Shown here piece after piece: positions 557 to 16,121 of a stretch of DNA of 32,863 bases. The notes below the pieces were generated by a model. That model was not told the origin of the DNA. It did not search any database and saw nothing but the letters and a program-made list of their open reading frames with translations. Numbering within the stretch: position 1 is the first letter of the stretch; the number at the start of each line of letters is the position of its first letter. Position numbers and translations under genes: made by a program. The DNA is from a virus (taxonomy: Duplodnaviria; Heunggongvirae; Uroviricota; Caudoviricetes), in the IMG/VR virus record IMGVR_UViG_2700989508_000029; one strand, written 5' to 3'.

Positions 557-611
557 AAAACACTCGATTAATCTCGTGTTAATGCCATCACCTACGACCA
601 TTACTAATTGA

Positions 612-1976
612 TTGAATCTTATAGAAAAATCATCATTTTCTATGCGTCACAATCAATTTTCACATTACAAACGCTCCGACACTTTAGCCGGAGATTTTAT
701 GAGATACAAGCCTAACCAATACTTAATCTGTGATTCTTACGGTAACTACTATTTGAGGATCACGTTGCCTGTGTATATGCAGCCCTTTTTTGAAGGAAAA
801 AGGACGTTTGTCAGGAGTCTACATACAAGTAATCTTCGTGTTGCACGTAGAAAGCGTGATCAGATTGCAGATGAATACCATTGTCTACGGGAGAGTGTCG
901 CCCCTGTAAACAGCACAATAGAGAACACGCTGGAGCTGTTACGCAGTAAGGCTAAATACGCCAAAACAGCTACCAGAATGCAAGATACAGCGTCTTCGTG
1001 TCCGTCATTGCTTAAAATTCTTGAAATCTACCTGACAATTAACAGCACGAAGAAGAAGCCAGCCACTTTAGCTAAGGCAAGAAAAGCGGTAGAGATGTTT
1101 CTCTCCTACCGTAAAAAGCCTGATATTGCATTGCAAGATGTGAGCCGCACCACTGTTACAGGCTGGATTGAACACATGCAAAAAACCCTTTCACAACAAT
1201 CAATTGCAAATTATATCAGCCCAATGGCCCAGCTATGGGAGTTAGCTTCATCACGTTACCACGATGCGCCAGAAAGGGCGCTCTCCCCCTGGCGAGGGCA
1301 TAGGCTTGATGTGGCACAAAGTAGAGAGAGCTATGAGGCATTTTCTAACAAAGAGCTATTGCAGGTGTTGCAAGTATTTTCCGGTAATTCAGCAGAAAAC
1401 AAAGAAATGATGGCTTTGTGTCTTATCGGTGCTTATACAGGTATGCGGATCAATGAGATAGCAAGTCTCACAATAGACGATGTGAAAGAGATCGAAGGTG
1501 TGCTGTGTTTTGAAATCACACAGGGAAAAACGAAAGCTGCGGCGCGTGTTGTTCCTGTACATAGCCTTATCACTCCATTGGTGTTATCTCTTCGTGAAAA
1601 GCCTCACAATGGCTTTTTGTTCTATCACGCCAGCATTACAGAGCGTGCTGACGGTAAACGCTCTACGTGGCATACACAACGATTTACAAGAGCTAAACGA
1701 AAGGCTTTAGGGGAAAAGGGAACAGAAAGGAAGGTGTTTCATTCTCTGAGACACGGAGTAGCACAGCTTCTTGATCGAAATCAAATTCCAGAAGACAGGA
1801 TCGCCCTTCTCCTGGGCCATACACGCGGCAATACAGAGACATTCCGCACATATAGCAAGAATGCAGCTTCTCCAGTAGAGCTTAAAAAATATATTGAGCT
1901 TCTACGCTACCCTGAAATAGAGAAAGGCTTATCAATCAATAAAAAATCAAATTTAAGGCGTAAAACAACGCCATAG
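612..1976 (+). CDS. Tyrosine recombinase/integrase (IntF-like by position)
   Basis: Catalytic signature is present: GMRINEI (Arg), KTKAAARVVPVH (Lys), HSLRH (His-x-x-Arg), LLGH and RTYSK (Tyr). The gene starts just inside the att copy and reads into the element. The track start is TTG; the ATGs at 642 or 699 (MRYKPNQYL...) are more likely true starts. Confidence 0.85.
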   Translation: MNLIEKSSFSMRHNQFSHYKRSDTLAGDFMRYKPNQYLICDSYGNYYLRITLPVYMQPFFEGKRTFVRSLHTSNLRVARRKRDQIADEYHCLRESVAPVNSTIENTLELLRSKAKYAKTATRMQDTASSCPSLLKILEIYLTINSTKKKPATLAKARKAVEMFLSYRKKPDIALQDVSRTTVTGWIEHMQKTLSQQSIANYISPMAQLWELASSRYHDAPERALSPWRGHRLDVAQSRESYEAFSNKELLQVLQVFSGNSAENKEMMALCLIGAYTGMRINEIASLTIDDVKEIEGVLCFEITQGKTKAAARVVPVHSLITPLVLSLREKPHNGFLFYHASITERADGKRSTWHTQRFTRAKRKALGEKGTERKVFHSLRHGVAQLLDRNQIPEDRIALLLGHTRGNTETFRTYSKNAASPVELKKYIELLRYPEIEKGLSINKKSNLRRKTTP

Positions 1977-1983
1977 ACGCAAT

Positions 1984-2015
1984 AAAGAGGCTTCAACATA
2001 ATTGGTAGCCTCTTT
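1984..2015. terminator. Bidirectional rho-independent terminator between convergent int and tail genes
   Basis: AAAGAGGCT-N14-AGCCTCTTT hairpin with T-rich sequence on both strands. Confidence 0.6.
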
Positions 2016-2056
2016 TATAATTACATCGTTACAGAGCGTTTTAGAGGCATTTACGG

Positions 2057-2770
2057 CTATTCCTGTTTAAAGGCAGGAGTAATAGTGTCTTCACCTTCAC
2101 TACTTGATTTTTCAGTGTTAACACGTTTTTTCATATTAGCCCCAATGTTCTTAGATGGCTGTGTTTTGAGAGCTACAGTGTTTACAGTGCCATAAGAAAC
2201 TAATCTGATTTGTTCAAAGCTAAGATCAAATACCAGAGATTCGCTTGCCTCTTCTGTGTATTCGATGCCTGTTAAAACAACGTTCTCAAAAGTTTTATTT
2301 TCTGTAACAAGAAGAAAAGGCTGTCTACTGTCCATAATCTGATTCAGGTAATCAATAGCTAATGATCTTCTGTTCCCGTTCACCCCTGCACTCTTTAACA
2401 AGCCAGGATCGCTTTTAATCGGTGTTTCAGTGATCCTTCCTTTAAGAGAAAACTTATTGTTTTTAATTTGAACGTGATCAGACACAGTAGCACCATTTTC
2501 TACGGGGTAGCTTGTAACATCTGCCGAACGTCTCACGTTCACATCGTCAACACTATCAAAGGCCAGTGCCATATAATTTTCATAAACGTCATTGCCAGAA
2601 GATGCCAAGCCACTGGTAACAATAGCAAATCCATTTTCGCCTTTTGTTGTATTAGCTTTGCTATTTTCGTTTTTTGTAGAGTTTATATCTTGTTCTGCTT
2701 TGTAAACAGCCTGAACGTGTTGTTCTGGAGTATTTGCTGCACGTATGGTTAAAATCCCGGCGGTCGCCAT
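2057..2770 (-). CDS. Phage tail/baseplate protein with Dit-like N-terminal domain (237 aa)
   Basis: The segment VTSYPVENGATVSDHVQ...LKGRITE...AIDYLNQIM...LVTE..FENVVLTGIEY...LVFDLSFEQIRLV matches the pattern I associate with Dit-like/baseplate proteins encoded just after tape-measure genes. It lies directly downstream of the TMP-like ORF. Confidence 0.45.
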   Translation of the reverse strand: MATAGILTIRAANTPEQHVQAVYKAEQDINSTKNENSKANTTKGENGFAIVTSGLASSGNDVYENYMALAFDSVDDVNVRRSADVTSYPVENGATVSDHVQIKNNKFSLKGRITETPIKSDPGLLKSAGVNGNRRSLAIDYLNQIMDSRQPFLLVTENKTFENVVLTGIEYTEEASESLVFDLSFEQIRLVSYGTVNTVALKTQPSKNIGANMKKRVNTEKSSSEGEDTITPAFKQE

Positions 2771-2804
2771 AATAATAATTTTCCTTGTAATGTTATGGCG
2801 GGAA

Positions 2805-4634
2805 TTACCCGCCGTTAGATTGTCCTGATAAGCTGGTTAATGTTAATGATTTCAAGAAGCTATCCCGACTTGCTCTCGCTGTAAAATCCACATAATCGCT
2901 TAATCTTGATGTGTCAGAATTAATAGTAAGAGGAACCTCCGTTACCACTTCAAAGGTTGGATTTATATTAAACACAGGAGATAAATTATAAGCTGGAGTT
3001 GTCATTGCAAGATTATTTAAAGCACCCTGTTTGAGATTGGTTATCGGTGCTTCGCTGACTGACATTTTTACATCTGACACAGAAGAAGCATTATCATCGA
3101 AAAGCAATCCCTTAATCGTGTTAAAGAGAGAATGACTATTATCAGGTGCAGTTGTTGCAGTTCCAGCGCCTTTATATTGGTCAGGAACGAGATTAGAAAG
3201 ATGCTGTTTCATCCCTTCATTGCTTAATGGCGGTGCATCACCTAAATTTTTCTGAATAGCATCTGTCTTATCATCATTACGATTAAACCAGTTTACAATC
3301 TTCATAATAGCCTCAAAGAGACTTCCTACAGCTTCTCCCAGCTTCGTAAAATACGGAGTGAGATTAGAAAGGTTTTTCATAAACTCTTCCGTTACTTTTG
3401 GATCGAGAGATTTCATAAAGCCGTCTACGAATGCTACTTGTCTTGCATCAGAAAGCTGTGAAAGCTGTCTGTTTAGTTCTCTGAATTTAACGATAGATTC
3501 TTGCTGTGTTTCTGTTAGCCATTTTCCAGAGGCTTTTTGCTGATTAATACTTTCTTGTACATCTTTAACGGAACGTTGCCAATATTTTGACGTAAGCATC
3601 AAATCATCGCCCAGGTCTTCTAAACGTTGTCCAATTTGGGAGTCTGAAAACCCTTTTTTCATCATTCCATTAACAGCCTTAGAAATTAATCCGGCTGGAT
3701 TATCAGCAAATTTTTTAAGGTCGCTTTTGTTAATAACACCGATGTTTAGAAGTTCATTAATAGCATTATCACCGCCTTTCCATTCAGATTTTCCTTTCTT
3801 GTCTTTCAAGAATTCAGCTTCACTGTAGGATTTTGCGGCACGTTCCCTAACATCTTTCATCTGATCCAGGTATTTCCTAGCCCCTTGATCACCCATCATA
3901 GAGTCAACGCCGTTTCTATAGGCCCATTCTGTAATGTTGTACATCTGGTTAACGTCTACACCGCCCAGCTTGGCCCGTTGAATTAGCTCCCCTTGCGTCT
4001 CTGCGTTAGCGAAGCTGTTAGCCATAAATTCAGAGGTTTTACTAACAGCCATCACGCCAGCGGCAGCCGTAGCGCCTCCAAATAACAGAGCGCCCATCGT
4101 GGCGGAATTCCCTGATCCTCCCTTAACGGGGGCTAATTGAGTTTTTCTATTGCCATTAATCTTACGTTGTTGTTGTTGTAAGCGTTTCATTTGGCTATTC
4201 ATACGTGCAAGCGAGATAGCGCCTTGTTCGTATTGTTTCGCTATCTCTCTAGCCTGTGCAATAGCTTTGTATTGTTCCGCTACAGAGAGGCGGTGCATTG
4301 CACTTATAGAGCTTGACACATCAAGGAGTTTTAATTCTGCTTTCTCCTTACGTGCTGCTATTTGTTGCTGTTGCCTTGCCTGTGCTCTTGCTGCGGCAGC
4401 TTGTGCTCTTTGATTCTGTTTTTCGGTTTTAGCTTTCTGTTGAGCAATCTTGTCTACTTCGTTTTGTGCTTTCTTATAGCCTTTAGTGACATTATCAAAT
4501 CTTAATTTAGCTGGCTTGATGTTTTCTGCGAATTCCTTTAAGCCTGTAATAGAGTCTTTCGCTTTTTTCAAGCTGTCTTTATCTACACTAAATGTTACTG
4601 TGTTCTTAATTTTAGAAGTGTTAATTTCTAACAT
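2805..4634 (-). CDS. Tape-measure-like protein (609 aa)
   Basis: It has an N-terminal Q/A/K-rich coiled coil, a Gly/Ala hydrophobic stretch (ALLFGGATAAAGVMAV) and a long alpha-helical repeat-like body. An SD (aaggggatttt) precedes the ATG. It sits upstream of the Dit-like gene. Confidence 0.55.
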   Translation of the reverse strand: MLEINTSKIKNTVTFSVDKDSLKKAKDSITGLKEFAENIKPAKLRFDNVTKGYKKAQNEVDKIAQQKAKTEKQNQRAQAAAARAQARQQQQIAARKEKAELKLLDVSSSISAMHRLSVAEQYKAIAQAREIAKQYEQGAISLARMNSQMKRLQQQQRKINGNRKTQLAPVKGGSGNSATMGALLFGGATAAAGVMAVSKTSEFMANSFANAETQGELIQRAKLGGVDVNQMYNITEWAYRNGVDSMMGDQGARKYLDQMKDVRERAAKSYSEAEFLKDKKGKSEWKGGDNAINELLNIGVINKSDLKKFADNPAGLISKAVNGMMKKGFSDSQIGQRLEDLGDDLMLTSKYWQRSVKDVQESINQQKASGKWLTETQQESIVKFRELNRQLSQLSDARQVAFVDGFMKSLDPKVTEEFMKNLSNLTPYFTKLGEAVGSLFEAIMKIVNWFNRNDDKTDAIQKNLGDAPPLSNEGMKQHLSNLVPDQYKGAGTATTAPDNSHSLFNTIKGLLFDDNASSVSDVKMSVSEAPITNLKQGALNNLAMTTPAYNLSPVFNINPTFEVVTEVPLTINSDTSRLSDYVDFTARASRDSFLKSLTLTSLSGQSNGG

Positions 4635-4648
4635 TTAAAATCCCCTTA

Positions 4649-4852
4649 TTAATCATTTTTATCACCTTCTTTACTTAAGAAATGGTGTAGAGCCTGATCA
4701 ATACTCTCGTTTAATCTGAACATACGGGCTTTTACTCCTTCATATGGAACATCTAGGAGAGAACAGAGATATTTCAGATTTAACAAGCCTCTAGAATCAT
4801 TAGCATCTAAATGTACGTGTACACCATTTTTTGATTTCAAAATCACTTCCAT
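4649..4852 (-). CDS. Hypothetical small protein (67 aa) between capsid and tape-measure genes
   Basis: ORF with an SD (gagaggtgatt) upstream, in an operon with the TMP-like gene. No recognisable motif. Confidence 0.45.
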   Translation of the reverse strand: MEVILKSKNGVHVHLDANDSRGLLNLKYLCSLLDVPYEGVKARMFRLNESIDQALHHFLSKEGDKND

Positions 4853-4874
4853 ATTTTAATCACCTCTCAAAATT

Positions 4875-4918
4875 TAAAAAAATAAAAAAAAAGGCGAAGC
4901 GTGAATACACGCCACGCC
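4875..4918 (-). terminator. Strong rho-independent terminator/attenuator immediately after the major capsid gene
   Basis: On the minus strand, a GGCGTGGCGTG-TATT-CACGCTTCGCC hairpin is followed by a T9AT7 run. Confidence 0.65.
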
Positions 4919-4936
4919 TCTATTACACGTTAAATA

Positions 4937-5965
4937 TTATTTAACAGTGATTTGAACGGAGAAGCCTACACCGTGGTTTACAACCATCTGGCTATTCTCT
5001 GTAACAACGTTAACAGCATCACCACGAGAAGATTCATAGCTATAGCTATACACCTCAGCAGGAGCGGCATTGATCAGTTCAAAAGTGCTGGAAGCAGCCC
5101 CGTAGATGTTCTGATATACATTAGAGCCTTTAGCAAACTTCGGAATCGCAACCGCATCAGAAGTCATATGTGCAAGGTGTAGCGGATCTACCAGTTTAAC
5201 AACATCAATGTTAGTTCCTGGGATAGTGAACGCTGTCACCCCTGGCAGCAGGTCACGACGCTGATACACAACGTTCCCCTCTTCCAGTGGGCTTACATAC
5301 TGGAATGCGTTTGCCATACCAGCAGAGAATCGAATTGCGGAGAAGGCTTCAGGTTTACAGAAAACAACAATACGCTCTACAGCAGACGCCTGGCTTTGTG
5401 CTTTCTCGATAATGTCAGTAGCAATCTGATCAAATTCTTTAAAAATCTTCGTGGTGTCAGTGCTGGAAGCGTTCACAGTGGCTTTCATAGCTGATACGTT
5501 AAACAGCTTGCCCCATTCGATAAGAACATCATCAGTTTTCGGTGTATAAGTTTTGCCCGAGAACAAAGAAGCAGCCAATACGCTCTCTTTTGTACGCTGA
5601 TACGCTACGTGGTGTTTAGCGATATATTCCGCATAAATATCAGTGAGTGTTTCCTGGAAATCAGTGCCAGGTTTACGTTTGCCTTGAACATCAGAAGGAC
5701 GGATCACATCTTCACGCAGGAAGTAAGGGATCTCGATCAGCCATTCTTTACCTTGTTCTCGCTTAGTAACATTGTGTTCAGAACTAAAACGGCTTGTCTC
5801 TTTGTTAAAGAGAGATTCGTTGCTTTCGACAAGCTGGGAAACAGCTACTTTATGAGATGTAACCCCTACAGAATCCGTAAAATCAAGAGTAGAGAGCAGG
5901 AAGTTACGCGTGCTGTGTGTCTGGAACAGAGGGATCAAATCAACGTAATCATTGCCTAGAATCAT
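4937..5965 (-). CDS. Major capsid protein, lambda gpE-like (Phage_cap_E-type), 342 aa
   Basis: Its length is close to lambda gpE (341 aa). The family-like segment is IPYFLREDVIRPSDVQGKRKPGT...YQRTKESVLAASLFSGK...LIEWGKLF. It is directly preceded by a decoration-like gene, as in the lambda D-E order. Confidence 0.65.
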   Translation of the reverse strand: MILGNDYVDLIPLFQTHSTRNFLLSTLDFTDSVGVTSHKVAVSQLVESNESLFNKETSRFSSEHNVTKREQGKEWLIEIPYFLREDVIRPSDVQGKRKPGTDFQETLTDIYAEYIAKHHVAYQRTKESVLAASLFSGKTYTPKTDDVLIEWGKLFNVSAMKATVNASSTDTTKIFKEFDQIATDIIEKAQSQASAVERIVVFCKPEAFSAIRFSAGMANAFQYVSPLEEGNVVYQRRDLLPGVTAFTIPGTNIDVVKLVDPLHLAHMTSDAVAIPKFAKGSNVYQNIYGAASSTFELINAAPAEVYSYSYESSRGDAVNVVTENSQMVVNHGVGFSVQITVK

Positions 5966-5983
5966 TTATTATTATTCCTTTTA

Positions 5984-6346
5984 TTAAGAAGTGAAAACAG
6001 AATGGAACCCTTCAAGCTGGAAGCCTTTTTTAATTAATGCTGTTTTTGCTGCTTCACTTACAGCATTCAGCGCATCAGCTTTGATGCATACAAGCCCAGC
6101 ATTGCTACGTAAAACATCTACAGGTTTGTTTTCTCCAGCCGTTACAAATTCACTCATAACAACATAGATATCATCTCCTGATACATATTTAGCGCCAGTG
6201 CTGGTGATCAAGTCGCCGCATTCAACATCAGCAGGAAGAGAAGCAAAAACCTTGCTTTCTACAGAGGCAAACGGATCAGTACAATAACTTACAATATCTG
6301 TGAAAGTCTTTCGAACTGGAAACAGAGTGTCTAAATCAATAATCAT
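5984..6346 (-). CDS. Head decoration protein-like (lambda gpD-position), 120 aa
   Basis: The size and the position immediately upstream of the E-like capsid gene fit. Its ATG overlaps the stop of the upstream ORF (ATGA). Confidence 0.45.
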   Translation of the reverse strand: MIIDLDTLFPVRKTFTDIVSYCTDPFASVESKVFASLPADVECGDLITSTGAKYVSGDDIYVVMSEFVTAGENKPVDVLRSNAGLVCIKADALNAVSEAAKTALIKKGFQLEGFHSVFTS

Positions 6347-6555
6347 TTAGTAATCTCCTTAGCTTTTAATTTGATTAATTCATTAAGGGAAGGTGTAGAC
6401 GGAGAAGAAGGAGAAAAATATTTTTCAACACATCTTTCTACTTCTTCTACAGAACACCCAGCGTATTTAGCTACCATTTCGGTAATTTGTGGATTTATTT
6501 TCAGCATTTCATCTTTATACTTGATGATTTGCTCTTTATCATTTAAGAACAACAT
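6343..6555 (-). CDS. Hypothetical protein (70 aa), first gene of the structural operon
   Basis: Translationally coupled (ATGA) to the decoration-like gene. No motif recognised. Confidence 0.45.
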   Translation of the reverse strand: MLFLNDKEQIIKYKDEMLKINPQITEMVAKYAGCSVEEVERCVEKYFSPSSPSTPSLNELIKLKAKEITK

Positions 6556-6617
6556 TTATATAAACCTTGTTACCTTGTTTAAAGTAAGAAATACAACTTT
6601 TAAGTTGCATAACGGGC

Positions 6618-6649
6618 AAAATAAAAGGCAGCATTTAGAGCCGCCTTTT
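6618..6649 (-). terminator. Rho-independent terminator separating the early and structural operons
   Basis: On the minus strand, the GGCGGC-UCUAAAU-GCUGCC hairpin has a G-U pair that is valid only on that strand, followed by UUUUAUUUU. Confidence 0.55.
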
Positions 6650-6678
6650 ATTAACTTGTACCTATGTAATTACCCTAT

Positions 6679-6708
6679 GTTATGCATACTCCAAGATGTA
6701 TGCATAAC
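6679..6708. promoter_or_regulatory. Operator-like perfect inverted repeat GTTATGCATA-N10-TATGCATAAC upstream of the structural operon
   Basis: 10-bp perfect arms. A third half-site, TTGCATAAC, lies at 6605-6613, nearer the operon start. Confidence 0.45.
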
Positions 6709-6904
6709 AAAGGAAAAAAGAGGTAATAATGACACAGTATTTACTTAAGGAGGAGAAGCGGGGAGCGGAGATTTTACTCCCCTTTAACGACAAGAAGAAT
6801 TTTTAATATCGAACCAATAAAGGAAAAATAATCACCCCATATAATTATATTAACATATAATAGATGGAATGTCAAGATATTTTACAACTTTTTTGTTGCT
6901 TTTT

Positions 6905-7267
6905 TTATTCTTCTGTGATAGTGCCTAAGCGTTGAGCGAGTTCGACAAGTCCATCTCCCACATAGCGAACATCAGATTCGATATCTTCTATCCAGTTTGA
7001 TAGCTCCCATATCTGATCGGCTGTCAGGTATGCGTTTTCGCGCTTACAGAGCATCTCTACACGCTTAGAGAGGTGCTCAAAGGCATTCACAGCTAAATCC
7101 CAGTGTTTAAACGCCTCATTTAGTGACGCTGGTGTGTTTTCTTTGTATGCTTCAAGTTCAGCGCGGTTTAAAGGCAGAAGGTAATCATCCTCATAATAAT
7201 TAATTAGTGAGTAAATTGTGTCATACGTGTTTTTGTTCATATTAAAAGTCTCCATAGTGATCAGCAT
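6905..7267 (-). CDS. Hypothetical protein (up to 120 aa; likely start at 7240 or 7255)
   Basis: The ORF is adjacent to the upstream gene's stop at 7242-7244. A GGAGA SD precedes the ATG at 7240. Confidence 0.45.
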   Translation of the reverse strand: MLITMETFNMNKNTYDTIYSLINYYEDDYLLPLNRAELEAYKENTPASLNEAFKHWDLAVNAFEHLSKRVEMLCKRENAYLTADQIWELSNWIEDIESDVRYVGDGLVELAQRLGTITEE

Positions 7268-7652
7268 TATCTAGAATCTGGAAGTCTGGAACTAAGTTAT
7301 TTAGGCCATTTGTGGCGAGATAACCAACGTAGTGGTTATAGTCTTCAAATCCTAAAATCTGGTATTTGCGTAAATCAGAGCTATCAACGATATACTCTTT
7401 TCTTTTTCTAGGTTTCCAGAATACGCCAGGTGTTGAAGATAAGATTTCTTGTAAGGCGTTAAATTCATCTCCGCAAGGCACAGAGGGAGAATGTTCTATG
7501 ATCTCTGTTTTCCATTCGCCAGGGGCGCTATTTTGCTTGGTGAGCGTAACTAGCTCTTTAAAGTCTTTGCGTCTTAGAATAGATTTAGGTTTACTTAGAA
7601 GAGAAGCTGAATCCCCGATTTTCTTAACAACGTTGTTTTTTCTTTTTGCCAT
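7242..7652 (-). CDS. Hypothetical protein with basic N-terminus (136 aa)
   Basis: ATG at 7652 with an AAGGAAA SD. The N-terminus is MAKRKNNVVKK. No family recognised. Confidence 0.45.
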   Translation of the reverse strand: MAKRKNNVVKKIGDSASLLSKPKSILRRKDFKELVTLTKQNSAPGEWKTEIIEHSPSVPCGDEFNALQEILSSTPGVFWKPRKRKEYIVDSSDLRKYQILGFEDYNHYVGYLATNGLNNLVPDFQILDNADHYGDF

Positions 7653-7784
7653 TATTTACTTTTCCTTTTCTTTTAAAGGAAAACACCCCGAAGTATGTTT
7701 CTAACGTGAGAAAGAACAATAACCAATACATAGCTACTATCATAATAATGTTTTCCTTTTATATTTTAATTACATAGAGAGATT

Positions 7785-8063
7785 TTAGAGAGTGGAATAG
7801 ATGAATTCTATTTCTTTATCTAGTCTTTTGAGATTGAATGTAGAGAAAGATAATTCTTTAATTTCTATAACACCGAAGTTTGATAGCTGTTTCAGCCAGA
7901 ATTTTAAACCATCTTCAGAGCACCCTGCTCGATGTAACACATCGCTATATTTTAGCGGTGTTGGCTTTCCTTTATAGAGGTAAGCAAGTGTTTCGTAGAT
8001 GCGTTTTCCTGTGTCGTTACACTGAATTCTGTCTACTTGATTTTTTACTAAATATTGAATCAT
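7785..8063 (-). CDS. Small putative winged-helix DNA-binding protein (92 aa)
   Basis: A strong SD (AAGGAGGG) precedes the ATG at 8063. The sequence looks wHTH-like. Confidence 0.45.
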   Translation of the reverse strand: MIQYLVKNQVDRIQCNDTGKRIYETLAYLYKGKPTPLKYSDVLHRAGCSEDGLKFWLKQLSNFGVIEIKELSFSTFNLKRLDKEIEFIYSTL

Positions 8064-8074
8064 AACCCTCCTTA

Positions 8075-8767
8075 TTAAAATGGAATATCAAAGTCTTCGT
8101 ATACTTTGGGATGTTTCTTAGCAAAATATGCCTCAATACCATTTGGTAGCTTTAACCTGTGCTTATAGGCTAACGATGTTGCAAATTCTATAAATGATGC
8201 TCCTCCTGTTCTAGTATTCTTCTGCTTGATAATAAGAGAGGCAAAATTCTTTAACACATCCTCCTCATTATCATTAGCTACCTTTTCACTTGATGAAACA
8301 GGTGTTTCTTCCGTCTCCCACGGTAAAGGCGTATCCCAATCATCATCAAGAACATCAAAAGAAGGCTGTTTATGGCCTTTAGGTTGTTCCTGTGCTTCTT
8401 CTGCCTCAGAAAGATCAGAGAGTGATGATTCTCCTGGGGGAGTAATATGTGCATCTGTGAGAGGGAGAGCATTGTAAATCAAAGATGAAATATACGGATC
8501 AGGATGTGGGGATGTTTCTAATAATCCCATCTCTTTAAGATCGTTTATCTTACGTTTAATTGTTGACGCTGAAGACTTAAAAATCTTAGCTAATGTTTCG
8601 TGACTTTCATAACAATTAAGGTTGTTTTCCTGATAACTAAGGAATCGAAAATAAAGCACAATATGTAATAGATCTAAATCTTTTCCTTGAGGGAATTTAT
8701 CAGAATAAATCTTTGATACATTATCAAACGTGTCATAGTGTTTTGTAAAAGTTAGTTGGTTAATCAT
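8075..8767 (-). CDS. HTH replication-initiator-like protein ending in an SSB C-terminal-tip-like motif (230 aa from MINQL)
   Basis: AAGGAG SD 7 nt before the ATG at 8767. The N-terminal wHTH-like segment is ESHETLAKIFKSSASTIKRKINDLKEMGLLE. An acidic linker follows, and the C-terminus YEDFDIPF resembles the E. coli SSB tip DFDDDIPF. Confidence 0.5.
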   Translation of the reverse strand: MINQLTFTKHYDTFDNVSKIYSDKFPQGKDLDLLHIVLYFRFLSYQENNLNCYESHETLAKIFKSSASTIKRKINDLKEMGLLETSPHPDPYISSLIYNALPLTDAHITPPGESSLSDLSEAEEAQEQPKGHKQPSFDVLDDDWDTPLPWETEETPVSSSEKVANDNEEDVLKNFASLIIKQKNTRTGGASFIEFATSLAYKHRLKLPNGIEAYFAKKHPKVYEDFDIPF

Positions 8768-8820
8768 TAAAAATCTCCTTGATGTAATCACGCTCTATGG
8801 CGCTACTATGGTGATAAAAA

Positions 8821-8991
8821 TCACTTGCTTTTATTTGAGAGTGTTTCAGCCTCTCTTTTCAACATATCAAGAATGTAATCTGTGACAGTGATCCGTCTAC
8901 TTCTGGCTTCTTTAAATAACACCTGAAATACTTCATCAGGAATATGAAAGCAAGTGCGTGGTTGTCTTTTCTTTTCTGTAGTTTCGCTCAT
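8821..8991 (-). CDS. Ribbon-helix-helix (CopG/Arc-like) protein (56 aa from MSETT)
   Basis: AAGGAG SD before the ATG at 8991. RTCFHIPDEVFQVLFKEARSRRITVTDYILDML fits a beta-alpha-alpha RHH pattern. Confidence 0.5.
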   Translation of the reverse strand: MSETTEKKRQPRTCFHIPDEVFQVLFKEARSRRITVTDYILDMLKREAETLSNKSK

Positions 8992-9010
8992 AGTTTTCTC
9001 CTTCTCTTCT

Positions 9011-9199
9011 TTACTCTGTTTCAGATTCTTTTTCATTTTTTCTTAGTTCATCAATAATCTTGAGTGCTTCATTGAAGCAAGCTGCTCGCTCTGGATAACC
9101 TCGACTCCTTGCCATATTACGATTCATTACTACTTGGTGGCGTGTAAGCTCACCTTTTTTAAATGCCTGGACGACGTGCTCAGGTGTAAACCATTTCAT
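9011..9199 (-). CDS. Hypothetical small protein (62 aa), first gene of the early operon
   Basis: AAGGAG SD before the ATG at 9199. Confidence 0.45.
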   Translation of the reverse strand: MKWFTPEHVVQAFKKGELTRHQVVMNRNMARSRGYPERAACFNEALKIIDELRKNEKESETE

Positions 9200-9310
9200 A
9201 AAAAACTCCTTATTCAGTTAAAAGAAAAAACACCTTGCAAGCCTGACGGCTTCAAAGTGCATTGATTTTGATTATTTAGAGAAGAATGTTTTTCTGTCCC
9301 TCTAATACCT

Positions 9311-9339
9311 ATTATTACATATAAAGAAACATTTGTCAA
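9311..9339 (-). promoter_or_regulatory. Candidate sigma70 early promoter of the AT-rich element
   Basis: On the minus strand, TTGACA-N16/17-TAATAAT lies about 110 nt upstream of the first early ORF. Confidence 0.4.
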
Positions 9340-9855
9340 TACCTTTTCATAAAAAATCTGATCTTTTTCATGCACTTACATTTTTTCTTAGCAATTCGTG
9401 CTCTCCTATGTAGTGCTATTCTTCCTTATTGTCTAAAACGCTCTAAAACGCGTTCTAACGAGATTTTGATAAAAGCAATACATTCCCTTATCTAATGGCT
9501 GTTTAGCTCGCCAGAGGCTTATTTAAGTGGCTTATTTTGTATTTGTTAGATGATGATAGATATAAAACAGAGAGTCACTTTATAAAACGCTCTGTAAAGC
9601 CCTGTAGTGAGTTTATTATATGTAGGCAATGCGTTTCCATTCCCTACCCTGCTTAATGTTGTTAGAGAAGCATTTAGACCCCTTATTTTTAATTACCTAA
9701 AGTATCCTCTATACATCTCTGTTATGAAACACCTCTGAATCCTTCATAAAACACATTATGACGCAAAGAACACTTTTCTAAGGTGATTCCCTTCCTGAAT
9801 GCTGTTTCTTGCGTCAGAGAGCTACACAGAGCTTATAAAGATATTATTAATAATA

Positions 9856-9917
9856 AAGTAGATAAAGTAAGTAAGATAAGTAAGTAAGATAACTAAGATA
9901 GATAAGATTAATAAGAT
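9856..9917. repeat. Degenerate TAAGATA/TAAGTAAG tandem microrepeat
   Basis: gataaagtaagtaagataagtaagtaagataactaagatagataagattaataagat. Confidence 0.6.
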
Positions 9918-9961
9918 CAGAATTCTCTTTCGGTGTCGCCTCTGGCTTTTCCACCGAAAAC

Positions 9962-10228
9962 AATTACACGACTACAGAATGTAGGAAGTGAAATTGTATT
10001 GAGGCTTAGTGAAATTACACGAGGAAAGCAGAGTGTAATTGAGCTTTAGCCGCTCTCTTCGAGTAATTACACAACTACAGAGAATAACGAGAGTTATTAA
10101 ATGTAGGAAGTGGAATTAAGAGGTAGAGAGTTACACATAAGCAATCAGTATGATTGGTTAGGTGATTACTCTTCTGCGCACAGCGCAATAGTATTTCTTC
10201 GTGGGCGTTACCGCCACGATAGTTACAC
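9962..10228. repeat. Cluster of (A)ATTACAC sites (about 6 copies, one inverted)
   Basis: AATTACAC occurs at 9962, 10013 and 10065, and GTGTAATT (inverted) at 10033. TTACAC/GTTACAC occur at 10131 and 10222. The larger unit AATTACACnACTACAGA...TGTAGGAAGTGnAATT is repeated at 9962-9994 and 10065-10118. Confidence 0.6.
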
Positions 10229-10350
10229 GAAGAAAGTAACGCTTTGCTTTCGGTGTGAGCGGAACGGGCCAGCCACGAAGCCCGAAAGGTAGCGGAGTAA
10301 GGCTGCTTGCCAGAGAGTGAAGCTAACGCCGGAAGGCAAAAGATCATATA

Positions 10351-10501
10351 TATATAGTATAAAGAATATTATTATGATCTAATTAATAATCTAATATAGT
10401 TTTATTAATAGTCTTATTGTAGTTCACAGTGACCTACCCCCTAGCTCACTATGACCTACCCCCTAGGTCACAGTGACCTATATAGTATAAAGAATATTAT
10501 T
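10351..10501. repeat. 23-bp perfect direct repeats flanking TGACCTACCCCCTAG repeats and a 15-bp palindrome
   Basis: TATATAGTATAAAGAATATTATT occurs at 10351-10373 and 10479-10501. TGACCTACCCCCTAG occurs at 10430-10444 and 10452-10466. The palindrome AGGTCAC-A-GTGACCT lies at 10465-10479. Confidence 0.7.
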
Positions 10502-10526
10502 TATATTATTTAATTATAGTATTGGT

Positions 10527-10626
10527 GGAACTCATTTCCTAGGTAGGTAGGAACTCATTTCCTAAGTAGGTAGGAAACCACTTCCTAGGTTACTTCCTAA
10601 ATAGATCGGAAATCATTTCCTAGGTG
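10527..10626. repeat. Iteron array: 4-5 copies of GGAAnnCAyTTCCTArGT (internal GGAA-N5-TTCC dyad), ~23-bp period
   Basis: Copies start at 10527, 10550, 10573 and 10608, with a partial copy at about 10593. Confidence 0.7.
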
Positions 10627-10641
10627 TTATTTATTCTTATC

Positions 10642-10700
10642 GGGTATCAGTTTTGATAGGGGTATCAGACTTGATAGGGGTAACAGAATTCTGTGGGGGT
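10642..10700. repeat. Iteron array: 3 copies of GGGGTAwCAGnnTTGATA, 18-bp period
   Basis: Copies at 10642-10658, 10659-10676 and 10677-10694, then a GGGGGTAG partial copy. Confidence 0.65.
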
Positions 10701-10866
10701 AGTTCACTATGACCTACCCCTAGCTCACTGTGAGCTACCGTTACATTCAATCATCTTCCGATGTGTAATATCGTTACATTCAATAATTAGTCTATGTAAC
10801 ATATCGTTACTACCAACTTTCTTACAAAGAGCATTTCAGATAGCTGAATGTAACCTCTCGTTACAT
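10701..10866. repeat. Third TGACCTACCCCTAG copy, AGCTCAC-T-GTGAGCT palindrome, and CGTTACAT/ATGTAAC sites
   Basis: TGACCTACCCCTAG is at 10710-10723 and the palindrome at 10722-10736. CGTTACATTCAAT occurs at 10739 and 10772. ATGTAAC occurs at 10794 and 10848, and CGTTAC(AT) at 10805 and 10859. Confidence 0.6.
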
Positions 10867-11669
10867 CCATTTGTCACATAGCACTCTGTGTAATGCCTTT
10901 CTATGTGTGTGCCATAATCCCCCCTATATTCCCTGTGTAAATCATAGAATATCCCTAACTTATTCCTGTGTAATTCCATACTAAAAATTCAATGAAAAAA
11001 GTAGCTTAAAAGTTCAATTCTTACTTTCTTCACTTTTACATCACTTTCGCAAATCCTTGTGTAATGCGGCTTACAGAGCACCATCAGAAATTGTTGGCTA
11101 AAAATTGTTCTGCTTGTTTCTTAATGAGTTTTCTTGTTTGTGCAAATTTTAAAATTTATTTTGTTTTTACAGCCTTATTTCGTGTAATGCGTGGCATAGC
11201 AAGCCCTTTTCTTGTGTTGTCAAGACATTTGGCAACGTTCAAACATCTGTTTAGAAATGCCAAATTGTTGATCTAACAAATAAACCTGTATAAACAGAAC
11301 ACCATTTAATCTATTCCCCTGTGTAATCCACTACATCACACGATAAAAACAAAAAACTTTTAATTATATTTCATAGCACACAAAAGTCAACAGAAGCCCT
11401 CTCGTGCTCCTACGTAAAAAATCCATCACTTTTCCCCTGATACATCAACTCAAGGCGTTCTATGTGTTCCTTAGTGCATATTACGATTATTATGTTAAAT
11501 GGATTTTGGCCTATATTTTGACCTGCACCCGCATAAACACTGGTTTCATCGCTTACAGCCCTTGTGAGACGTGGTGCTGTTTCTAGCATCTGATCCGACA
11601 TAAAACCGATCATTCTCGTGTTTAGTGAAAGTTTAGTGAGAGACATTACAGAAAGGCTTTCTGTGTAAT
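10762..11669. repeat. Dispersed (C)TGTGTAAT sites (at least 8 copies), inverse orientation of the 9962-10228 ATTACAC cluster
   Basis: Copies at 10762, 10886, 10933, 10966, 11058, 11182, 11319 and 11661. One reversed copy (ACTACACAGG, next to GTTACAT) lies at about 12331-12347. Confidence 0.6.
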
Positions 11670-12137
11670 GATTTAATAGGTAAAAACGATGTTGATTACG
11701 CAAGAAAATTCCTTGCTGATATTTGGGGATTCTGGATTTTCCAGATCGGGGGGCGCTGAAAATCGCGTTAAGCACTTCTCGCAATCTAGCCATAAGGGAA
11801 GGGATATAGGTATTTAGATGTATTTATAGCTAATTTATAGCTATTTATTTTTTATTTACCTTTATTAAAAATAACCTTATAAATCAATAAGATACATAAT
11901 TATCTGTTTATATTCTAATCAATTAAATCAAGTTTAATACCCTTAAATAACCTGAAAATAGCCTTAAATACCCCAATAATTAATTTTAAGGTTTTCCGTG
12001 TTCTCTTCTGCATTATGAAAATGCAAAATAAGGCACAAAACAAGCTCACATACGCATTAAACACACATCACCTATACATCCCTATGCCAAGCAATGAAAA
12101 CAGCGTTAGAATGCGTCCTGTTGCGTTCTGGAGATTT

Positions 12138-12296
12138 TCAGAAATCCTCTCTAAGCCATTTCAACTCACTAAGGAGTTTTCTTTCTTCGTTCTCTCGTTG
12201 CTTTCGCTCTAGCCAGGCTTTTCCCTCTGGCGTAGACAGGAACTTACGAGCGTGAATCTTGCGGTTATTACGTTTGATAGCTGCAATGTTTTTCAT
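12138..12296 (-). CDS. Unlisted small basic ORF (52 aa, MKNIAAIKRNNRKIHARKFLSTPEGKAWLERKQRENEERKLLSELKWLREDF)
   Basis: I translated this by hand. It has an ATG with an AGAGG SD about 8 nt upstream, and GTTACAT / CTGTGTAGT-type sites lie just upstream. It is below the 60-aa threshold of the ORF track. Confidence 0.35.
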   Translation of the reverse strand: MKNIAAIKRNNRKIHARKFLSTPEGKAWLERKQRENEERKLLSELKWLREDF

Positions 12297-12479
12297 CGTG
12301 TGCCTCTGTATTCATATGAAAATTAACAAGTTACATACTACACAGGGAGACTACGCATAAAACACAATACAAGTAAAGATACATTTTCAAGACAATAGGA
12401 GCCATAAAGCGCCTTTGATGGTTATACCAAAAAATAAGCGCCGTAGGCGTATCCACTAAAAAGGGCTTTTTCACAAAAG

Positions 12480-12842
12480 CTATGAAGTCTTAGCAGTTCT
12501 TCTCTTATCAGGCACCCGTTGTACTCCGGTGGACGAAACCGTGCTAGAGCTTGATTCTTTCCCGATCAAGTTAGGTTTTGAAGAGGTGGGCTTTAATCCA
12601 CTATGCACTTAAAACTCTTCCCATCATTTAGCCTGTTTATCCTCTGCAACGTCTCACGACGTGTAGCATCATTGGACACCGCGCCAGGTGTGGAACATCT
12701 TGCTAAGAGTTTTGGTAGAAGGTTTAGAGACGGTGGCACGTCTTCCAGCTTCAAAGGAACTTGTTACGAGGTTGAGCCTGGGAACTACTCGCCCATACGT
12801 GTTACACTACCAAAGCCCATAACAACGTATAGGCGTTTGTAA
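12480..12842 (+). ncRNA. Candidate structured non-coding RNA (hairpin cluster) next to the inter-element att
   Basis: A locally GC-enriched block in AT-rich DNA holds seven consecutive hairpins: 12548-12572, 12581-12620, 12649-12662, 12676-12691, 12727-12744, 12745-12781 and 12790-12836. Three G-T appositions (12549/12571, 12727/12744, 12750/12776) are wobble-compatible only on the + strand. Confidence 0.35.
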
Positions 12843-12898
12843 GTGATAACAGAAGATACAATTTCTTAGAGAAGTTAAGCTAAGTTATTGATTTTCTT

Positions 12899-12916
12899 AA
12901 TGGTGCGATAATAGGA
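12899..12916. repeat. Degenerate internal att copy (junction between the two elements)
   Basis: AATGGTG-CGATAATAGGA differs from AATGGTGCCGATAATAGGA by a 1-nt deletion. Its flanks (TTGATTTT.. / ..AAAACA) also resemble those of the 536-556 copy. Confidence 0.6.
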
Positions 12917-12978
12917 ACAAAACAAACAATAAAAATACATTGATATATAAAGACATTTTCCCATTACATCTTTGTAGA

Positions 12979-12998
12979 TACCCCCAAAAGTACCCCCA
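12979..12998. promoter_or_regulatory. Putative integrase arm-type sites (TACCCCCAAAAGTACCCCCA), distal arm of the P4-like element
   Basis: 19/20 identical to 31287-31306 beside the integrase gene, in the same orientation, with the same 12-bp spacing of the TACCCCCA octamers. Confidence 0.5.
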
Positions 12999-13257
12999 AA
13001 CAATTTTCTCTCACCACCATTTGCACATAAAGCAGCCATGTACAACTGGTAGTTGAACAGGCGGGTAGACCGTTCGTTCAGTAAATACCTGATATTTCCG
13101 CCAACGAGAAATTGCGTTGGCTGGCAGAGTGCAAATTTGCACGATAACCTAACCCATTGATTCTTTCGAAAACCCGCAATGCAGGAAGCCGGATAACACC
13201 ATTTTATAGCTCCGATCCCTTCAAAGTGAGGGGTAATTTGCCAAAACAGAGAGAGCA

Positions 13258-13545
13258 TTACTGTCTCTGGCAATCTTTATCGCGATAACGCCTGAAGTAC
13301 CCTCTCGCTTCCTCATCCATACCAAGAGCCGAATGAGTCCGCTTAACTGCCTGTCTTAAATCTCCGAATCTGTCTGTAGTTGCTGGTGGGCGTGCCGCCT
13401 TACGGATACATTCAGAGCGTCTGTTTGCTGCATGTTCACGTTCTTTATCGCCATCTGCCAGCATCATGACTTCTGCCCATCGTGCGGCAGCTCTCCGGTA
13501 TAGCCCTTTTGACTCCAGCTCTTCAGCTTTCCTGTCCTTTATCAT
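13258..13545 (-). CDS. PerC/Pch-family transcriptional regulator-like protein (95 aa)
   Basis: AEELESKGLYRRAAARWAEVM...REHAANRRSEC matches the PerC-family N-terminal pattern I recall (..LE..G.YRRAA.RW..V..). Confidence 0.65.
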   Translation of the reverse strand: MIKDRKAEELESKGLYRRAAARWAEVMMLADGDKEREHAANRRSECIRKAARPPATTDRFGDLRQAVKRTHSALGMDEEARGYFRRYRDKDCQRQ

Positions 13546-13578
13546 TTCTGCCTCTCAGATTATATAGATAAGCAAAAA

Positions 13579-13705
13579 GGTGTTGGTTCAGTTGGTTCAG
13601 TTGGTTCAATTTGTAAAGAGCGTTGTTTTTATTGTGTTTTTTCTAAAATATTGAACCAACATCAACTCATTTTGAACCAACACAGCCCAGCTCTGAACCA
13701 ACAAC
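13579..13705. repeat. Iteron module A (ori/crr-like): 3 tandem GTTGGTTCA, an AT-rich spacer, then 3 TGAACCAAC
   Basis: GTTGGTTCA is at 13582, 13591 and 13600. TGAACCAAC is at 13652, 13673 and 13694. The module is an inverted homolog of 22036-22153. Confidence 0.7.
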
Positions 13706-13755
13706 ACAGCGATAGATTTGCGATTGGTCCGTTATTTTCTGGCTGATATTTGAGC

Positions 13756-13790
13756 GTATAACAGTGTTATACAGTGGTATACTGTATGGA
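13756..13790. promoter_or_regulatory. Operator-like overlapping dyads (GTATAAC-AGT-GTTATAC; ATACAGT-GGTAT-ACTGTAT) upstream of the RHH gene
   Basis: Perfect 7-bp arms at 13756-13772 and 13769-13787. Confidence 0.4.
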
Positions 13791-13804
13791 TATTACTCAC
13801 TGAT

Positions 13805-14245
13805 ATGGTCTTTGCAATGAGCAAATCTAATCTGATCGCGTTCCGCATCCCATCTGAATTGCAGGATGAGTTTAATCGGTCTGTTCTCGCTTCTGGAGGG
13901 GATAAAACCTCCTGGCTTGTTGATGCGATTCGCATGAAGCTGGGACAGCCGGAAAAGTCTATTGATTCACGAATGCTTGGGCTGGTGGAGCGCATGGAAA
14001 AAGCCGCAGCATCGCTTATTGCCGGAAAGCCGAACATCCCACCAAAGCCATATAACGAAACGGCAGTTATAAAGATCATTGCCGATACCATCCGACAGGG
14101 ATTTGATAATGGGCGTGTGATAGCTGAACGGCTCAATGAAGCAGGCTACCAAACAAAAGCTGGTAAAGCGTGGGATAAAGACATTTACAGCGCGTGGAAG
14201 CGTCAGGATAACAATATTAAAAGAATCAATACGCTGCTTCAGTAA
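13805..14245 (+). CDS. RHH-domain DNA-binding protein with a C-terminal recombinase-like helical domain (146 aa; possibly starts at 13817)
   Basis: NLIAFRIPSELQDEFNRSVLASGGDKTSWLVDAIRMKL fits an RHH pattern. The C-terminal AERLNEAGYQTKAGKAWDKDIY resembles the recombinase-domain LN..G..T..G..W motif. Confidence 0.5.
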   Translation: MVFAMSKSNLIAFRIPSELQDEFNRSVLASGGDKTSWLVDAIRMKLGQPEKSIDSRMLGLVERMEKAAASLIAGKPNIPPKPYNETAVIKIIADTIRQGFDNGRVIAERLNEAGYQTKAGKAWDKDIYSAWKRQDNNIKRINTLLQ

Positions 14246-14274
14246 TTGATCAGTGTATAAATGATATTTATCGC

Positions 14275-15252
14275 TCAATCGCTCCCTTTCCGCCCTTCAG
14301 CTACAGGGTCGTTGTCGGCGATAACAAAACCTAAGTCCTGAGAGAATCTCTCTCGTGGGAATCCTTTAGCAGGTAAACCCATTGAATCATATCCACATCC
14401 GGGAACATTTGGTTTAGAGTCAATAAGGTCTGCAATTTGCCGAAGCCATGTTGATCCCGGACCAAGTCGTTTAACTAAGTACCAGATAATACAGATCGCG
14501 CTAAAAATCCTCTCGCAACTCTCTGGATGGAGATTAAGTCCGTCAAAGTATTCATTATCCGGTACTGGAACTCGGGGATGCTTTCTATTCCATATTCTGG
14601 AATGGTGAGCGCAACGATTCCTTATGAGATTAAGGCACTTCAACCATTTTGCAAATGTCTGCTTATTATCAATGCCAAAACGACGTATAATTTTCCCCTG
14701 CATATGACCATTAAGCATCGCATAATATTTAGACATCTGACCAAAATCCCAGGTCTCCACCGCCACCCAAAATGGAATCTCCTTGCCTTGGCTTCGATGC
14801 CATTCAATACAGTCATCTCTGCTTTCGTCTAATTTTACTTTTTGCTTATACACCCAATGCTCGAAGGCAGATGAGAATTTTGGATTAATGTATTTTGATG
14901 ACATGTAGGCAAGTGGATCATTGCGACCAACCTCATGCGCGATGACTGAACGAACATGAATCTCTATTCTTTCGATAGCATCAATCATCAAAAGACGCAG
15001 TTTTTTGTCAAAAAGATATAGATCGTACGTCTTCTCGAAACTGGTACCAGTAAGAAATCGGTCTGTTCTGTACGAAAGACCTTTATCTGTTGTCGCAATA
15101 ATTCTTGATGGGTACCAAAAACCTGACAATCGATAATATCCAACCTGCGACAGCTTACGTATCGCACGATTTCGATCATTGATAATCATGCCACGTTCAA
15201 GTAGCAATCCTAGCAATTCGTGATAGTCCTTATGAGGCTTTGCGGCAATCAT
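14275..15252 (-). CDS. Abi_2 family (AbiD/AbiF-like) abortive-infection protein
   Basis: Family hallmarks are present: YYRLSGFWYP, ERIEIHVRSVIAHE and LNLIRNRCAHHSRIWNR. The likely start is MIAAKPHKDY at 15252; the track ORF extends to 15297. Confidence 0.85.
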   Translation of the reverse strand: MIAAKPHKDYHELLGLLLERGMIINDRNRAIRKLSQVGYYRLSGFWYPSRIIATTDKGLSYRTDRFLTGTSFEKTYDLYLFDKKLRLLMIDAIERIEIHVRSVIAHEVGRNDPLAYMSSKYINPKFSSAFEHWVYKQKVKLDESRDDCIEWHRSQGKEIPFWVAVETWDFGQMSKYYAMLNGHMQGKIIRRFGIDNKQTFAKWLKCLNLIRNRCAHHSRIWNRKHPRVPVPDNEYFDGLNLHPESCERIFSAICIIWYLVKRLGPGSTWLRQIADLIDSKPNVPGCGYDSMGLPAKGFPRERFSQDLGFVIADNDPVAEGRKGSD

Positions 15253-15422
15253 AGTGGCGAAACAAAAGATAATAAAAGGCCCGACCGTGAAACTCACATG
15301 CCTGAAATCGGCGGCGGAGAAACAGAGGATCGGGCTCGGTTGCCTGTAACTCTATCCGAAGTTATCCACATGTCAATGCACAGTTACTTAGGAAACTAAC
15401 ATAGGTACTATCATCACTCACG

Positions 15423-16104: not shown

Positions 16105-16121
16105 CGCTAAAGGGGGTTGGT

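Follow-up and report, generated by a model that had tools for sequence, protein, structure and literature searches.

The 12.3-kb integrative element at positions 559-12900 of the DNA analysed here (IMG/VR virus record IMGVR_UViG_2700989508_000029, whose 32,863 nucleotides are called the window throughout) is probably a helper-dependent satellite of virulent phages of the Stephanstirmvirinae, and it appears to come from an undescribed family of satellites in the Enterobacterales. The generic features of a satellite are all present, namely the size of 12.3 kb, an integrase with attachment (att) repeats, an initiator-like gene with iterons and an incomplete set of virion genes. Judged from sequence comparison, the helper would most likely be a virulent myovirus of the Stephanstirmvirinae similar to phages phi92 and phAPEC8 (Justusliebigvirus, Phapecoctavirus).

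The window is a piece of the E. coli chromosome around the tRNA gene thrW (tRNA-Thr CGU, 31420-31495, minus strand), in which the element is integrated. The 19-nt 3' end of thrW (TGGTGCCGATAATAGGAGT) is present three times in the window: in the tRNA gene itself (31420-31438), as a perfect copy that forms the outer att core (540-558) and as a degenerate copy (TGGTGC-GATAATAGGAAC) that forms the inner att core at the junction with a neighbouring P4-like island (12901-12918). The window thus holds two islands in tandem (559-12900 and 12919-31419). As the same 12.3-kb element stands alone in E. coli O26 RM8426, directly abutting thrW and a yagP-like pseudogene, its boundaries are fixed independently of the neighbouring island. 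A first-pass annotation, made from the sequence alone, had described an att-bounded, intact and small integrative element, and this was borne out by the thrW repeats and by the solitary copy in RM8426. The GC content of the element is 38.4%, against 50-54% in the chromosomal flanks. At a coverage of at least 80% the element was found in 247 of 5426 complete E. coli genomes (about 4.6%), and the top matches listed include O26 and O103 strains of human and cattle origin. It has no homology to the cryptic prophage CP4-6 of K-12, which occupies the same locus.

The gene content was established by scanning open reading frames (ORFs) of at least 50 amino acids (aa), covering all non-nested ORFs, against Pfam and PHROG. 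A tyrosine integrase with DUF6538, SAM-like and catalytic domains is encoded on the plus strand (699-1976; PF00589, 3e-17), its ORF being open from 612 and its RefSeq start lying at 699. The structural genes are all on the minus strand, downstream of a sigma-70-type promoter with an extended -10 (6847-6875, minus strand) that is followed by a leader of about 300 nt with hairpins. The first of them encodes a 70-aa protein (6343-6555) and its stop overlaps the start of the next gene, that of a 120-aa protein (5984-6346), so that the two may be translationally coupled. The major capsid protein, of the lambda-E family, follows (4937-5965; Phage_cap_E PF03864, 1.1e-14), with a strong intrinsic terminator directly 3' of its gene (4896-4920, minus strand). 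Beyond the terminator come a small 67-aa protein conserved in the family (4649-4852), a 609-aa homologue of tape-measure proteins (TMPs; 2805-4634; phrog_16051, 1.4e-54) and a Dit-like tail-tube initiator or baseplate protein (2057-2770; PF21821, 3.4e-29). In the scanned ORFs no Pfam or PHROG match was obtained for terminase, portal, protease, scaffold, sheath, tube, fibre, holin or endolysin, and an NCBIfam search of the element returned nothing. Profile and terminator searches confirmed the integrase, the Dit-like protein, the TMP, the E-like capsid protein, the terminator and the helix-turn-helix (HTH) initiator-like protein named in the first-pass annotation. The capsid-shell and tail-core genes are also the sole virion genes, as had been claimed, with portal, terminase, protease or scaffold, tube, fibre and lysis genes not found.

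The tail-core proteins are those that point to the helper. Homologues of the TMP were found in 134 of 50,697 phage records, and those among the matches listed belong to phages of about 130-152 kb, most of them labelled Stephanstirmvirinae, with which the organism summary agrees. For the TMP-like protein of a Klebsiella member of the family the number of phage records with homologues is also 134, the organism counts being nearly the same and the identities 40-42%, and the matches listed are phages of about 143-153 kb of the Stephanstirmvirinae type. The closest matches of the Dit-like protein are the tail tube initiators of these same phages (59-62% identity). In Justusliebigvirus JohannJBalmer (Bas62), a virulent contractile-tailed phage of the Stephanstirmvirinae, the counterpart is bas62_0019, the product of the gene after the TMP gene (61% identity). 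The TMP itself is 55% identical to that of the proposed helper (659 aa) over the N-terminal 66 aa and 29% identical over residues 173-609, its middle part being a coil rich in Q and A that is shorter than in the helper. The strongest conservation is found at the N-termini, where 22 of the first 23 or so residues of the TMP match the helper and residues 11-34 of the initiator (24 aa) are fully identical to it. DNA stretches 86-91% identical are shared with these phages. Since both of the conserved stretches contain synonymous differences, it is their protein sequences that are held by purifying selection, and very recent transfer is not the explanation; the conserved N-termini are presumably contact surfaces for partner proteins of the helper. 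In a comparison of the whole element with phage genomes the shared DNA consists of patches of 40-80 bp and, among the matches listed, the phages have genomes of about 145-151 kb and are mostly labelled Escherichia phages. The GC content of the proposed helper (37.4%) is close to the 38.4% of the element.

The order of the genes tells the same story. The late module of JohannJBalmer runs terL, portal, protease, scaffold, decoration, capsid and terminator and, further on, sheath, tube, tube, a 75-aa ORF, TMP, tube initiator and hub. The operon of the satellite mirrors two blocks of this module, one made of the 120-aa gene, the capsid gene and the terminator, which the helper has in the same position, and the other of the small ORF, the TMP gene and the tube initiator gene. 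The capsid protein is more distant from that of the helper (22% identity over its full length), and a hidden Markov model (HMM) of the family matches the helper capsid protein with an E value of 9e-20. The first-pass annotation had proposed that the element re-dimensions the virion of a helper siphovirus. The siphovirus part of this proposal is not upheld, the relatives of the TMP and of the initiator being contractile-tailed virulent Stephanstirmvirinae of about 146-151 kb, and the effect on tail length would be small at best, as the TMP of 609 aa is only about 8% shorter than the 659-aa TMP of the helper.

A different, unsequenced and possibly temperate helper, with the resemblance to Stephanstirmvirinae reflecting only shared ancestry of tail modules, is quite unlikely. 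It would agree with the best phage matches of the capsid protein, which are Pseudomonas phages of the Pakpunavirus/Otagovirus type (about 25% identity) and rank ahead of the proposed helper, and with the Klebsiella and Enterobacter satellites, which have no DNA patch in common with any phage in the database. However, the matches listed for the TMP, from its 134 records among 50,697, are of the Stephanstirmvirinae type, and in E. coli the initiator identity of 61% together with the DNA stretches at 86-91% and a further patch at 93-97%, described below, points to ongoing contact with these phages.

The element is one member of a family. Homologues of its capsid protein with 38-96% identity were found in E. 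coli, Citrobacter, Klebsiella, Enterobacter, Cronobacter, Leclercia, Serratia and Sodalis, and relatives are common in Klebsiella pneumoniae. A core formed by the capsid, 120-aa, TMP-like and 136-aa genes recurs in islands of about 10-12 kb, at 38-77% capsid identity, in E. coli, Klebsiella, Enterobacter, Serratia and Sodalis. The loci compared came from a metagenome, Klebsiella, Serratia, Sodalis, Enterobacter and a second E. coli lineage, and all of them share one gene order. An integrase, which in Sodalis is a serine recombinase, is followed by a variable slot and the TMP-like gene (609-650 aa). Next come a gene of about 64 aa, the capsid gene and genes of about 120 and 70 aa, and the islands end with two conserved genes, a swappable winged HTH (wHTH) initiator module and a non-coding stretch of 2-3 kb. 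None of the family members examined was found to have a terminase or portal gene. A single-sequence scan of genome contigs returned one close relative only.

The variable slot holds the Dit-like gene in this element, in one metagenomic member and in Sodalis, whereas the Klebsiella and Enterobacter members have a 42-aa gene plus a 92- or 155-aa gene in its place and in one E. coli lineage the slot is empty. Because it is absent or replaced in these members the Dit-like gene is accessory and not part of the family core. Most members outside E. coli carry a second, short tyrosine recombinase (183-205 aa) at the end opposite to the integrase (264-845 in locus L010, 2968-3585 in L012, 3138-3689 in L015, 3576-4133 in L017; also in L018, L019, L038-L049 and L055). 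It is absent from the element of the window and from its close E. coli relatives, and could be a multimer resolvase or a directionality factor.

It is highly improbable that the element is a decaying prophage remnant in which a few structural genes were kept by chance. A tRNA gene that is an integration hotspot beside another island, and some 3.5 kb (9200-12900) with no convincing gene, are what such a remnant might leave, but the core ORFs are all intact, the same gene set and order recurs in five genera, always in islands of about 10-12 kb and never with a terminase or portal gene, and the apparently empty region contains iterons and repeat arrays. Moreover, the capsid proteins of complete phages in the database reach, among the matches listed, an identity of about 27% at most, and all 256 records matched by the capsid protein are below 60%. 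The earlier statement that this is not a random deletion remnant therefore stands, since the same architecture is found across genera at 38-77% capsid identity.

Given that the satellite has no terminase gene, a patch that it shares with the terminal repeat of these phages is a natural candidate for its packaging site. The patch (11745-11790) is a 46-bp match with a 40-nt core (ATCGGGGGGCGCTGAAAATCGCGTTAAGCACYTCTCGCAA), 93-97% identical to a stretch in the 342-bp direct terminal repeat (DTR) of phage BME3. The terminal repeats of this Justusliebigvirus were determined with PhageTerm (PMC12210895), and the genomes of Stephanstirmvirinae are stated to end in DTRs (PMC12695924). In BME3 the patch falls within the annotated DTR-L, at a distance of 58 bp from one of its boundaries, and the records of phages W22 and PD06 begin or end 73 bp outside that DTR. 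In the element the patch is non-coding and its phage counterpart is located in a gene-poor region (91262-91307 in JohannJBalmer). It is kept in the E. coli satellites, including a lineage at 72% capsid identity, with flanks that differ from those of the phage. From its sequence and position the patch may be a mimic of the packaging signal of the helper; alternatively, it could be a regulatory site. Only one copy of the repeat carries an annotation in the BME3 record (DTR-L), and the first 1.5 kb of the record is free of any annotated DTR.

The early operon is also on the minus strand and starts with a family-conserved 62-aa protein (9011-9199), with a promoter-like site of the sigma-70 type at 9311-9339. 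It is followed by a small protein of the Arc or ribbon-helix-helix (RHH) type (8821-9036) and by a wHTH replication-initiator-like protein (8075-8791; phrog_270, 2.9e-9; HTH_36/DUF6945). The RHH assignment of the first-pass annotation received weak support (Arc-like, E 0.004). A 92-aa protein (7785-8063) has no family match, and the wHTH that had been assigned to it could not be confirmed. The 136-aa family-core protein (7242-7652), which is very common in Klebsiella, and a conserved protein with a 120-aa ORF (6905-7267; 111 aa in RefSeq) complete the minus-strand genes of this part. Helicase, primase and polymerase genes are not present in the element.

Three sets of iteron-like direct repeats, with units of 23, 23 and 18 nt, lie at 10416-10739 and are presumed to be the origin of replication. 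An Rfam scan of 9000-13000 gave no match. The iterons are flanked by an array of GTGTAAT boxes (9963-11669, with eight forward and three reverse copies in this span); the whole element contains eight forward and four reverse copies, compared with about 1.2 expected for each. With the longer consensus YYCTGTGTAAT, the eight forward copies are spaced about 50-340 bp apart, most of them by 80-140 bp, and three reverse copies stand beyond the iterons. The array is confined to the close E. coli lineage. The boxes were considered as a promoter motif of the helper and this was discarded, as the helper genome is not clearly enriched in them and other family members have none. A small cluster just downstream of the terminal-repeat patch of the helper is the exception in that genome.

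The early genes also have relatives in phages. The N-terminal half of the wHTH protein is 31% identical to inny_184 of phage inny, and the RHH-like protein is 50% identical to the adjoining inny_185. In the stretches examined (1790-3113 of locus L008, from phage inny, and 1522-2508 of locus L006, from phage Mt1B1_P17) the phage protein of this pair matches the wHTH region of the satellite twice. The sharing of this gene pair suggests that modules may have been exchanged between satellites and helpers.

Taken together, these features are compatible with the following life cycle, which we infer from sequence comparison. Infection by the helper would cause the element to excise, and the initiator would then fire the iteron origin with replisome proteins of the helper or of the host. 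The capsid protein and the 120-aa protein, perhaps together with the 70-aa protein, would build a satellite-specific and probably smaller shell on the portal, scaffold and protease of the helper; that the capsid gene sets a small capsid geometry would be in keeping with this. The terminase of the helper would package the satellite DNA by means of the mimicked terminal-repeat sequence. In the tail core the TMP and the tube initiator of the satellite would replace those of the helper, giving a chimeric tail as in PLE, which should be about 7-8 nm shorter (50 fewer residues at 1.5-1.6 Å per residue; about 8 nm with the 1.6 Å per residue that applies to PLE). In this way the assembly of the helper would be diverted or poisoned and the bacterial population protected. 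It is quite possible, though short of probable, that the virion is doubly chimeric, with its own shell on the portal, scaffold and protease of the helper and its own TMP, with or without the initiator, in the baseplate, tube and sheath of the helper, that packaging relies on the 40-nt mimic with no terminase subunit of the element's own, and that these are the first satellites of large virulent coliphages and Klebsiella phages.

Several observations weigh against the satellite reading. Excision, replication, packaging and transfer are all deduced from sequence, and neither an excisionase nor a terminase small subunit is recognisable in the element. Of the 34 metagenome contigs checked (9-17 kb), not one is circular or has redundant termini, and those with recognisable thrW att cores are integrated copies. 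Matches in IMG/VR lie in contigs of 19-76 kb that show no terminal overlap and look like provirus calls. With a capsid protein only 22% identical to that of the helper, compatibility with the scaffold and portal of the helper stays presumed. JohannJBalmer has no homologues of the early initiator pair, which is found in only some Stephanstirmvirinae. The location of the patch in a DTR rests on a single record with an odd repeat layout, as the BME3 record (PP239276; 1-1290 of locus L052, from the end of the record) has two repeat copies of at least 300 bp that are 861 bp apart at the same end of the record. In addition, the patch was not found in family members outside E. coli, and the lack of phage-like DNA patches in the Klebsiella and Enterobacter satellites counts here as well. 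The searches also assign no firm role to the 67-, 70-, 120- and 136-aa proteins. The Logan contigs of about 11 kb are chromosomal fragments.

Some of these observations would suit a defence island that is not itself transduced and that spreads vertically or by other means, its divergent capsid protein, TMP and initiator co-assembling with those of the phage and poisoning phage assembly. This is unlikely. A dominant-negative competitor would need N-termini identical to those of the helper, as the TMP and initiator have, defences that target tail assembly are known (Rta, PMC11838301; PMC11364771), and no packaged or circular form was seen in the metagenome contigs. Nevertheless, an island of this kind has no need for an integrase, att sites, an initiator with iterons or a terminal-repeat patch, features characteristic of elements able to excise, to replicate and to be packaged. 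That a full-length capsid protein is conserved between genera (38-77% identity) suggests that it works as a shell protein, and PADLOC found no match to known defence systems in the element. The roles of satellite and of defence are compatible and do not exclude each other.

Among the satellites already described, PLE and cf-PICI come closest to the one proposed here. With PLE it has in common a virulent and contractile-tailed helper (a probable one here), an initiator with an iteron origin and the lack of replisome genes. At the functional level only, both have their own TMP and a baseplate-hub-type protein homologous to those of the (putative) helper, and a role in defence at the population level would be expected for this element too. 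PLE encodes a tail assembly chaperone (TAC), a TMP and a baseplate hub that replace those of ICP1 and give chimeric tails 10 nm shorter, and PLE11 thereby escapes its own TMP-targeting defence protein Rta (PMC11838301). No sequence relationship to PLE was detected, although no homology test aimed at PLE proteins was made. The differences are that PLE has a large serine recombinase, a Vibrio host and ICP1 as helper, whereas the element described here uses a tyrosine integrase, is inserted at a tRNA gene and has its hosts in the Enterobacterales; that PLE remodels the ICP1 coat protein with the scaffold TcaP, whereas this element has its own capsid gene; and that this element has no recognisable terminase small subunit (TerS) and the gene before its TMP gene is HTH-like and not TAC-like.

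The cf-PICIs are likewise small integrative islands with their own major capsid protein that must borrow other parts of the virion. They bring a head module of their own, made of terS, terL, portal, protease, capsid protein, head-tail adaptor and connector, and steal complete tails. Of this head set only the capsid protein and the 120-aa protein are present here, and genes of the tail core are added to them. In SatelliteFinder tail genes are forbidden for PICI and cf-PICI (PMC10085698), and the program would reject this element because its tail genes are such forbidden components. It differs from PICIs in having no match to a primase-helicase, AlpA or TerS and in the presence of capsid and tail structural genes. 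The EPIPs (Extracellular Prophage-Inducing Particles) of Mycolicibacterium are reported to encode a capsid protein and a TMP and to have altered capsid and tail dimensions (bioRxiv 2025, PMC12822802). They share with this element the condition of a small satellite having both a capsid protein and a TMP but, by their description, also have terS, a head-tail adaptor and stopper, a scaffold and a serine integrase, and depend on a temperate siphovirus-type prophage in an unrelated host phylum. P4-like satellites resemble the element in size (about 11-12 kb), in integration at a tRNA gene in Enterobacteria and in dependence on a myovirus. They differ in that scans with Pfam, PHROG and RNA models gave no Sid, Psu, Delta, Epsilon, alpha primase-helicase or C4 and isrK RNA in the element. 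P4, for its part, has no gene for a structural protein of capsid or tail, and its helper is a temperate phage of the P2 type.

On the features tested, those that define P4, PICI and cf-PICI are absent, as are the serine recombinase, Vibrio host and ICP1 helper of PLE, in agreement with the first-pass annotation, which had placed the element in none of them. Its suggestion of a new type holds in so far as no described family fits; as a category the claim is too strong, for PLE already makes chimeric tails with its own TMP and hub (PMC11838301) and cf-PICIs have their own capsids. Each single trick has a precedent, the capsid in cf-PICI and the TMP in PLE and EPIP, so that this is a new family and not something categorically new. 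No paper linking satellites to Stephanstirmvirinae, or citing the RefSeq proteins, was found in full-text searches of incomplete coverage. To our knowledge no satellite of a virulent coliphage has been described.

The small proteins of the structural operon were less easily recognized. The 120-aa protein (5984-6346) gave an AF2 model of low confidence (pLDDT 54.6), whose best Foldseek matches are chains of about 123 aa in the capsid reconstructions of the myoviruses Sf14 and Bas63 (E 0.016-0.13), which are presumably decoration proteins. Its gene occupies the position of the decoration gene in the helper and in lambda. Homology to lambda D or to the decoration protein of the helper was rejected, as no similarity was found by BLASTP, by hhalign, by searching the helper ORFeome with an HMM or by comparing profiles with the PDB. 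Of the lambda D-like label given to it earlier, what is left are the weak Foldseek matches from a poor model, in the face of no similarity by sequence or profile; on the basis of the model a decoration-like role is plausible.

The C-terminal tail of the 70-aa protein (SLNELIKLKAKEITK) resembles the C-terminus of the helper scaffold (SASELIRQKAAELKKAQK), with Smith-Waterman z values of 4.8-5.9 against shuffled sequences. By hhalign the two gave an E value of 0.18, and in the HMM search the scaffold was outside the top five matches. A CpmB-like mimicry of the scaffold C-terminus was thus given no support by profile methods and is kept as a weak lead, the idea of a mini-scaffold being speculative. 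The 67-aa protein (4649-4852) was considered as a tail assembly chaperone and this was rejected; its weak matches are to a small HTH protein (sigma-70 region 4-like), and it could be a regulator or a packaging-specificity factor. The AF2 model of the 136-aa core protein (pLDDT 57) had no fold match.

The second island of the window (12919-31419), in tandem between the element and thrW, is a P4-like satellite. It encodes an integrase (30040-31254), an alpha-like primase-helicase (22176-24935; Zn_Ribbon_Prim, Toprim_3 and DUF927), Ash (26895-27962), PerC (13258-13545) and an Abi_2 protein (14275-15297), together with the C4 antisense RNA (27354-27441) and isrK (27504-27581). A block at 16755-21413 is formed by DNA-ejection proteins of the P22 type, with DUF2824 (20952-21413), P22_gp7 (20281-20958), a gp20-like Inj_translocase (18860-20281) and a 701-aa ORF (16755-18860) that lacks a Pfam match and stands where gp16 would be. 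Podovirus ejection proteins are an odd cargo for a P4-like satellite, and both of the tandem satellites carry virion-internal proteins. At the other end of the window the first ORF (1-411) adjoins the outer copy of the att core and seems, on its sequence, to be a fusion or pseudogene, in which a LysR substrate-binding C-terminus (a yagP-like remnant, incomplete in RefSeq) comes after an unrelated N-terminal stretch.

If the satellite reading is true, the best-studied bacteria would harbour a new family of satellites, one that depends on a virulent and not on a temperate helper. It would also represent a new division of labour, in which shell and tail core come from the satellite and all the rest from the helper, and it would extend the finding made with PLE that satellites rewire tail assembly. 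Moreover, tools that treat tail genes as forbidden would miss whole families. Phages similar to phi92 and phAPEC8 are under study for therapy and biocontrol. These satellites would then be a possibly widespread and specific determinant of resistance against such phages, as well as a phage-driven route of gene transfer.

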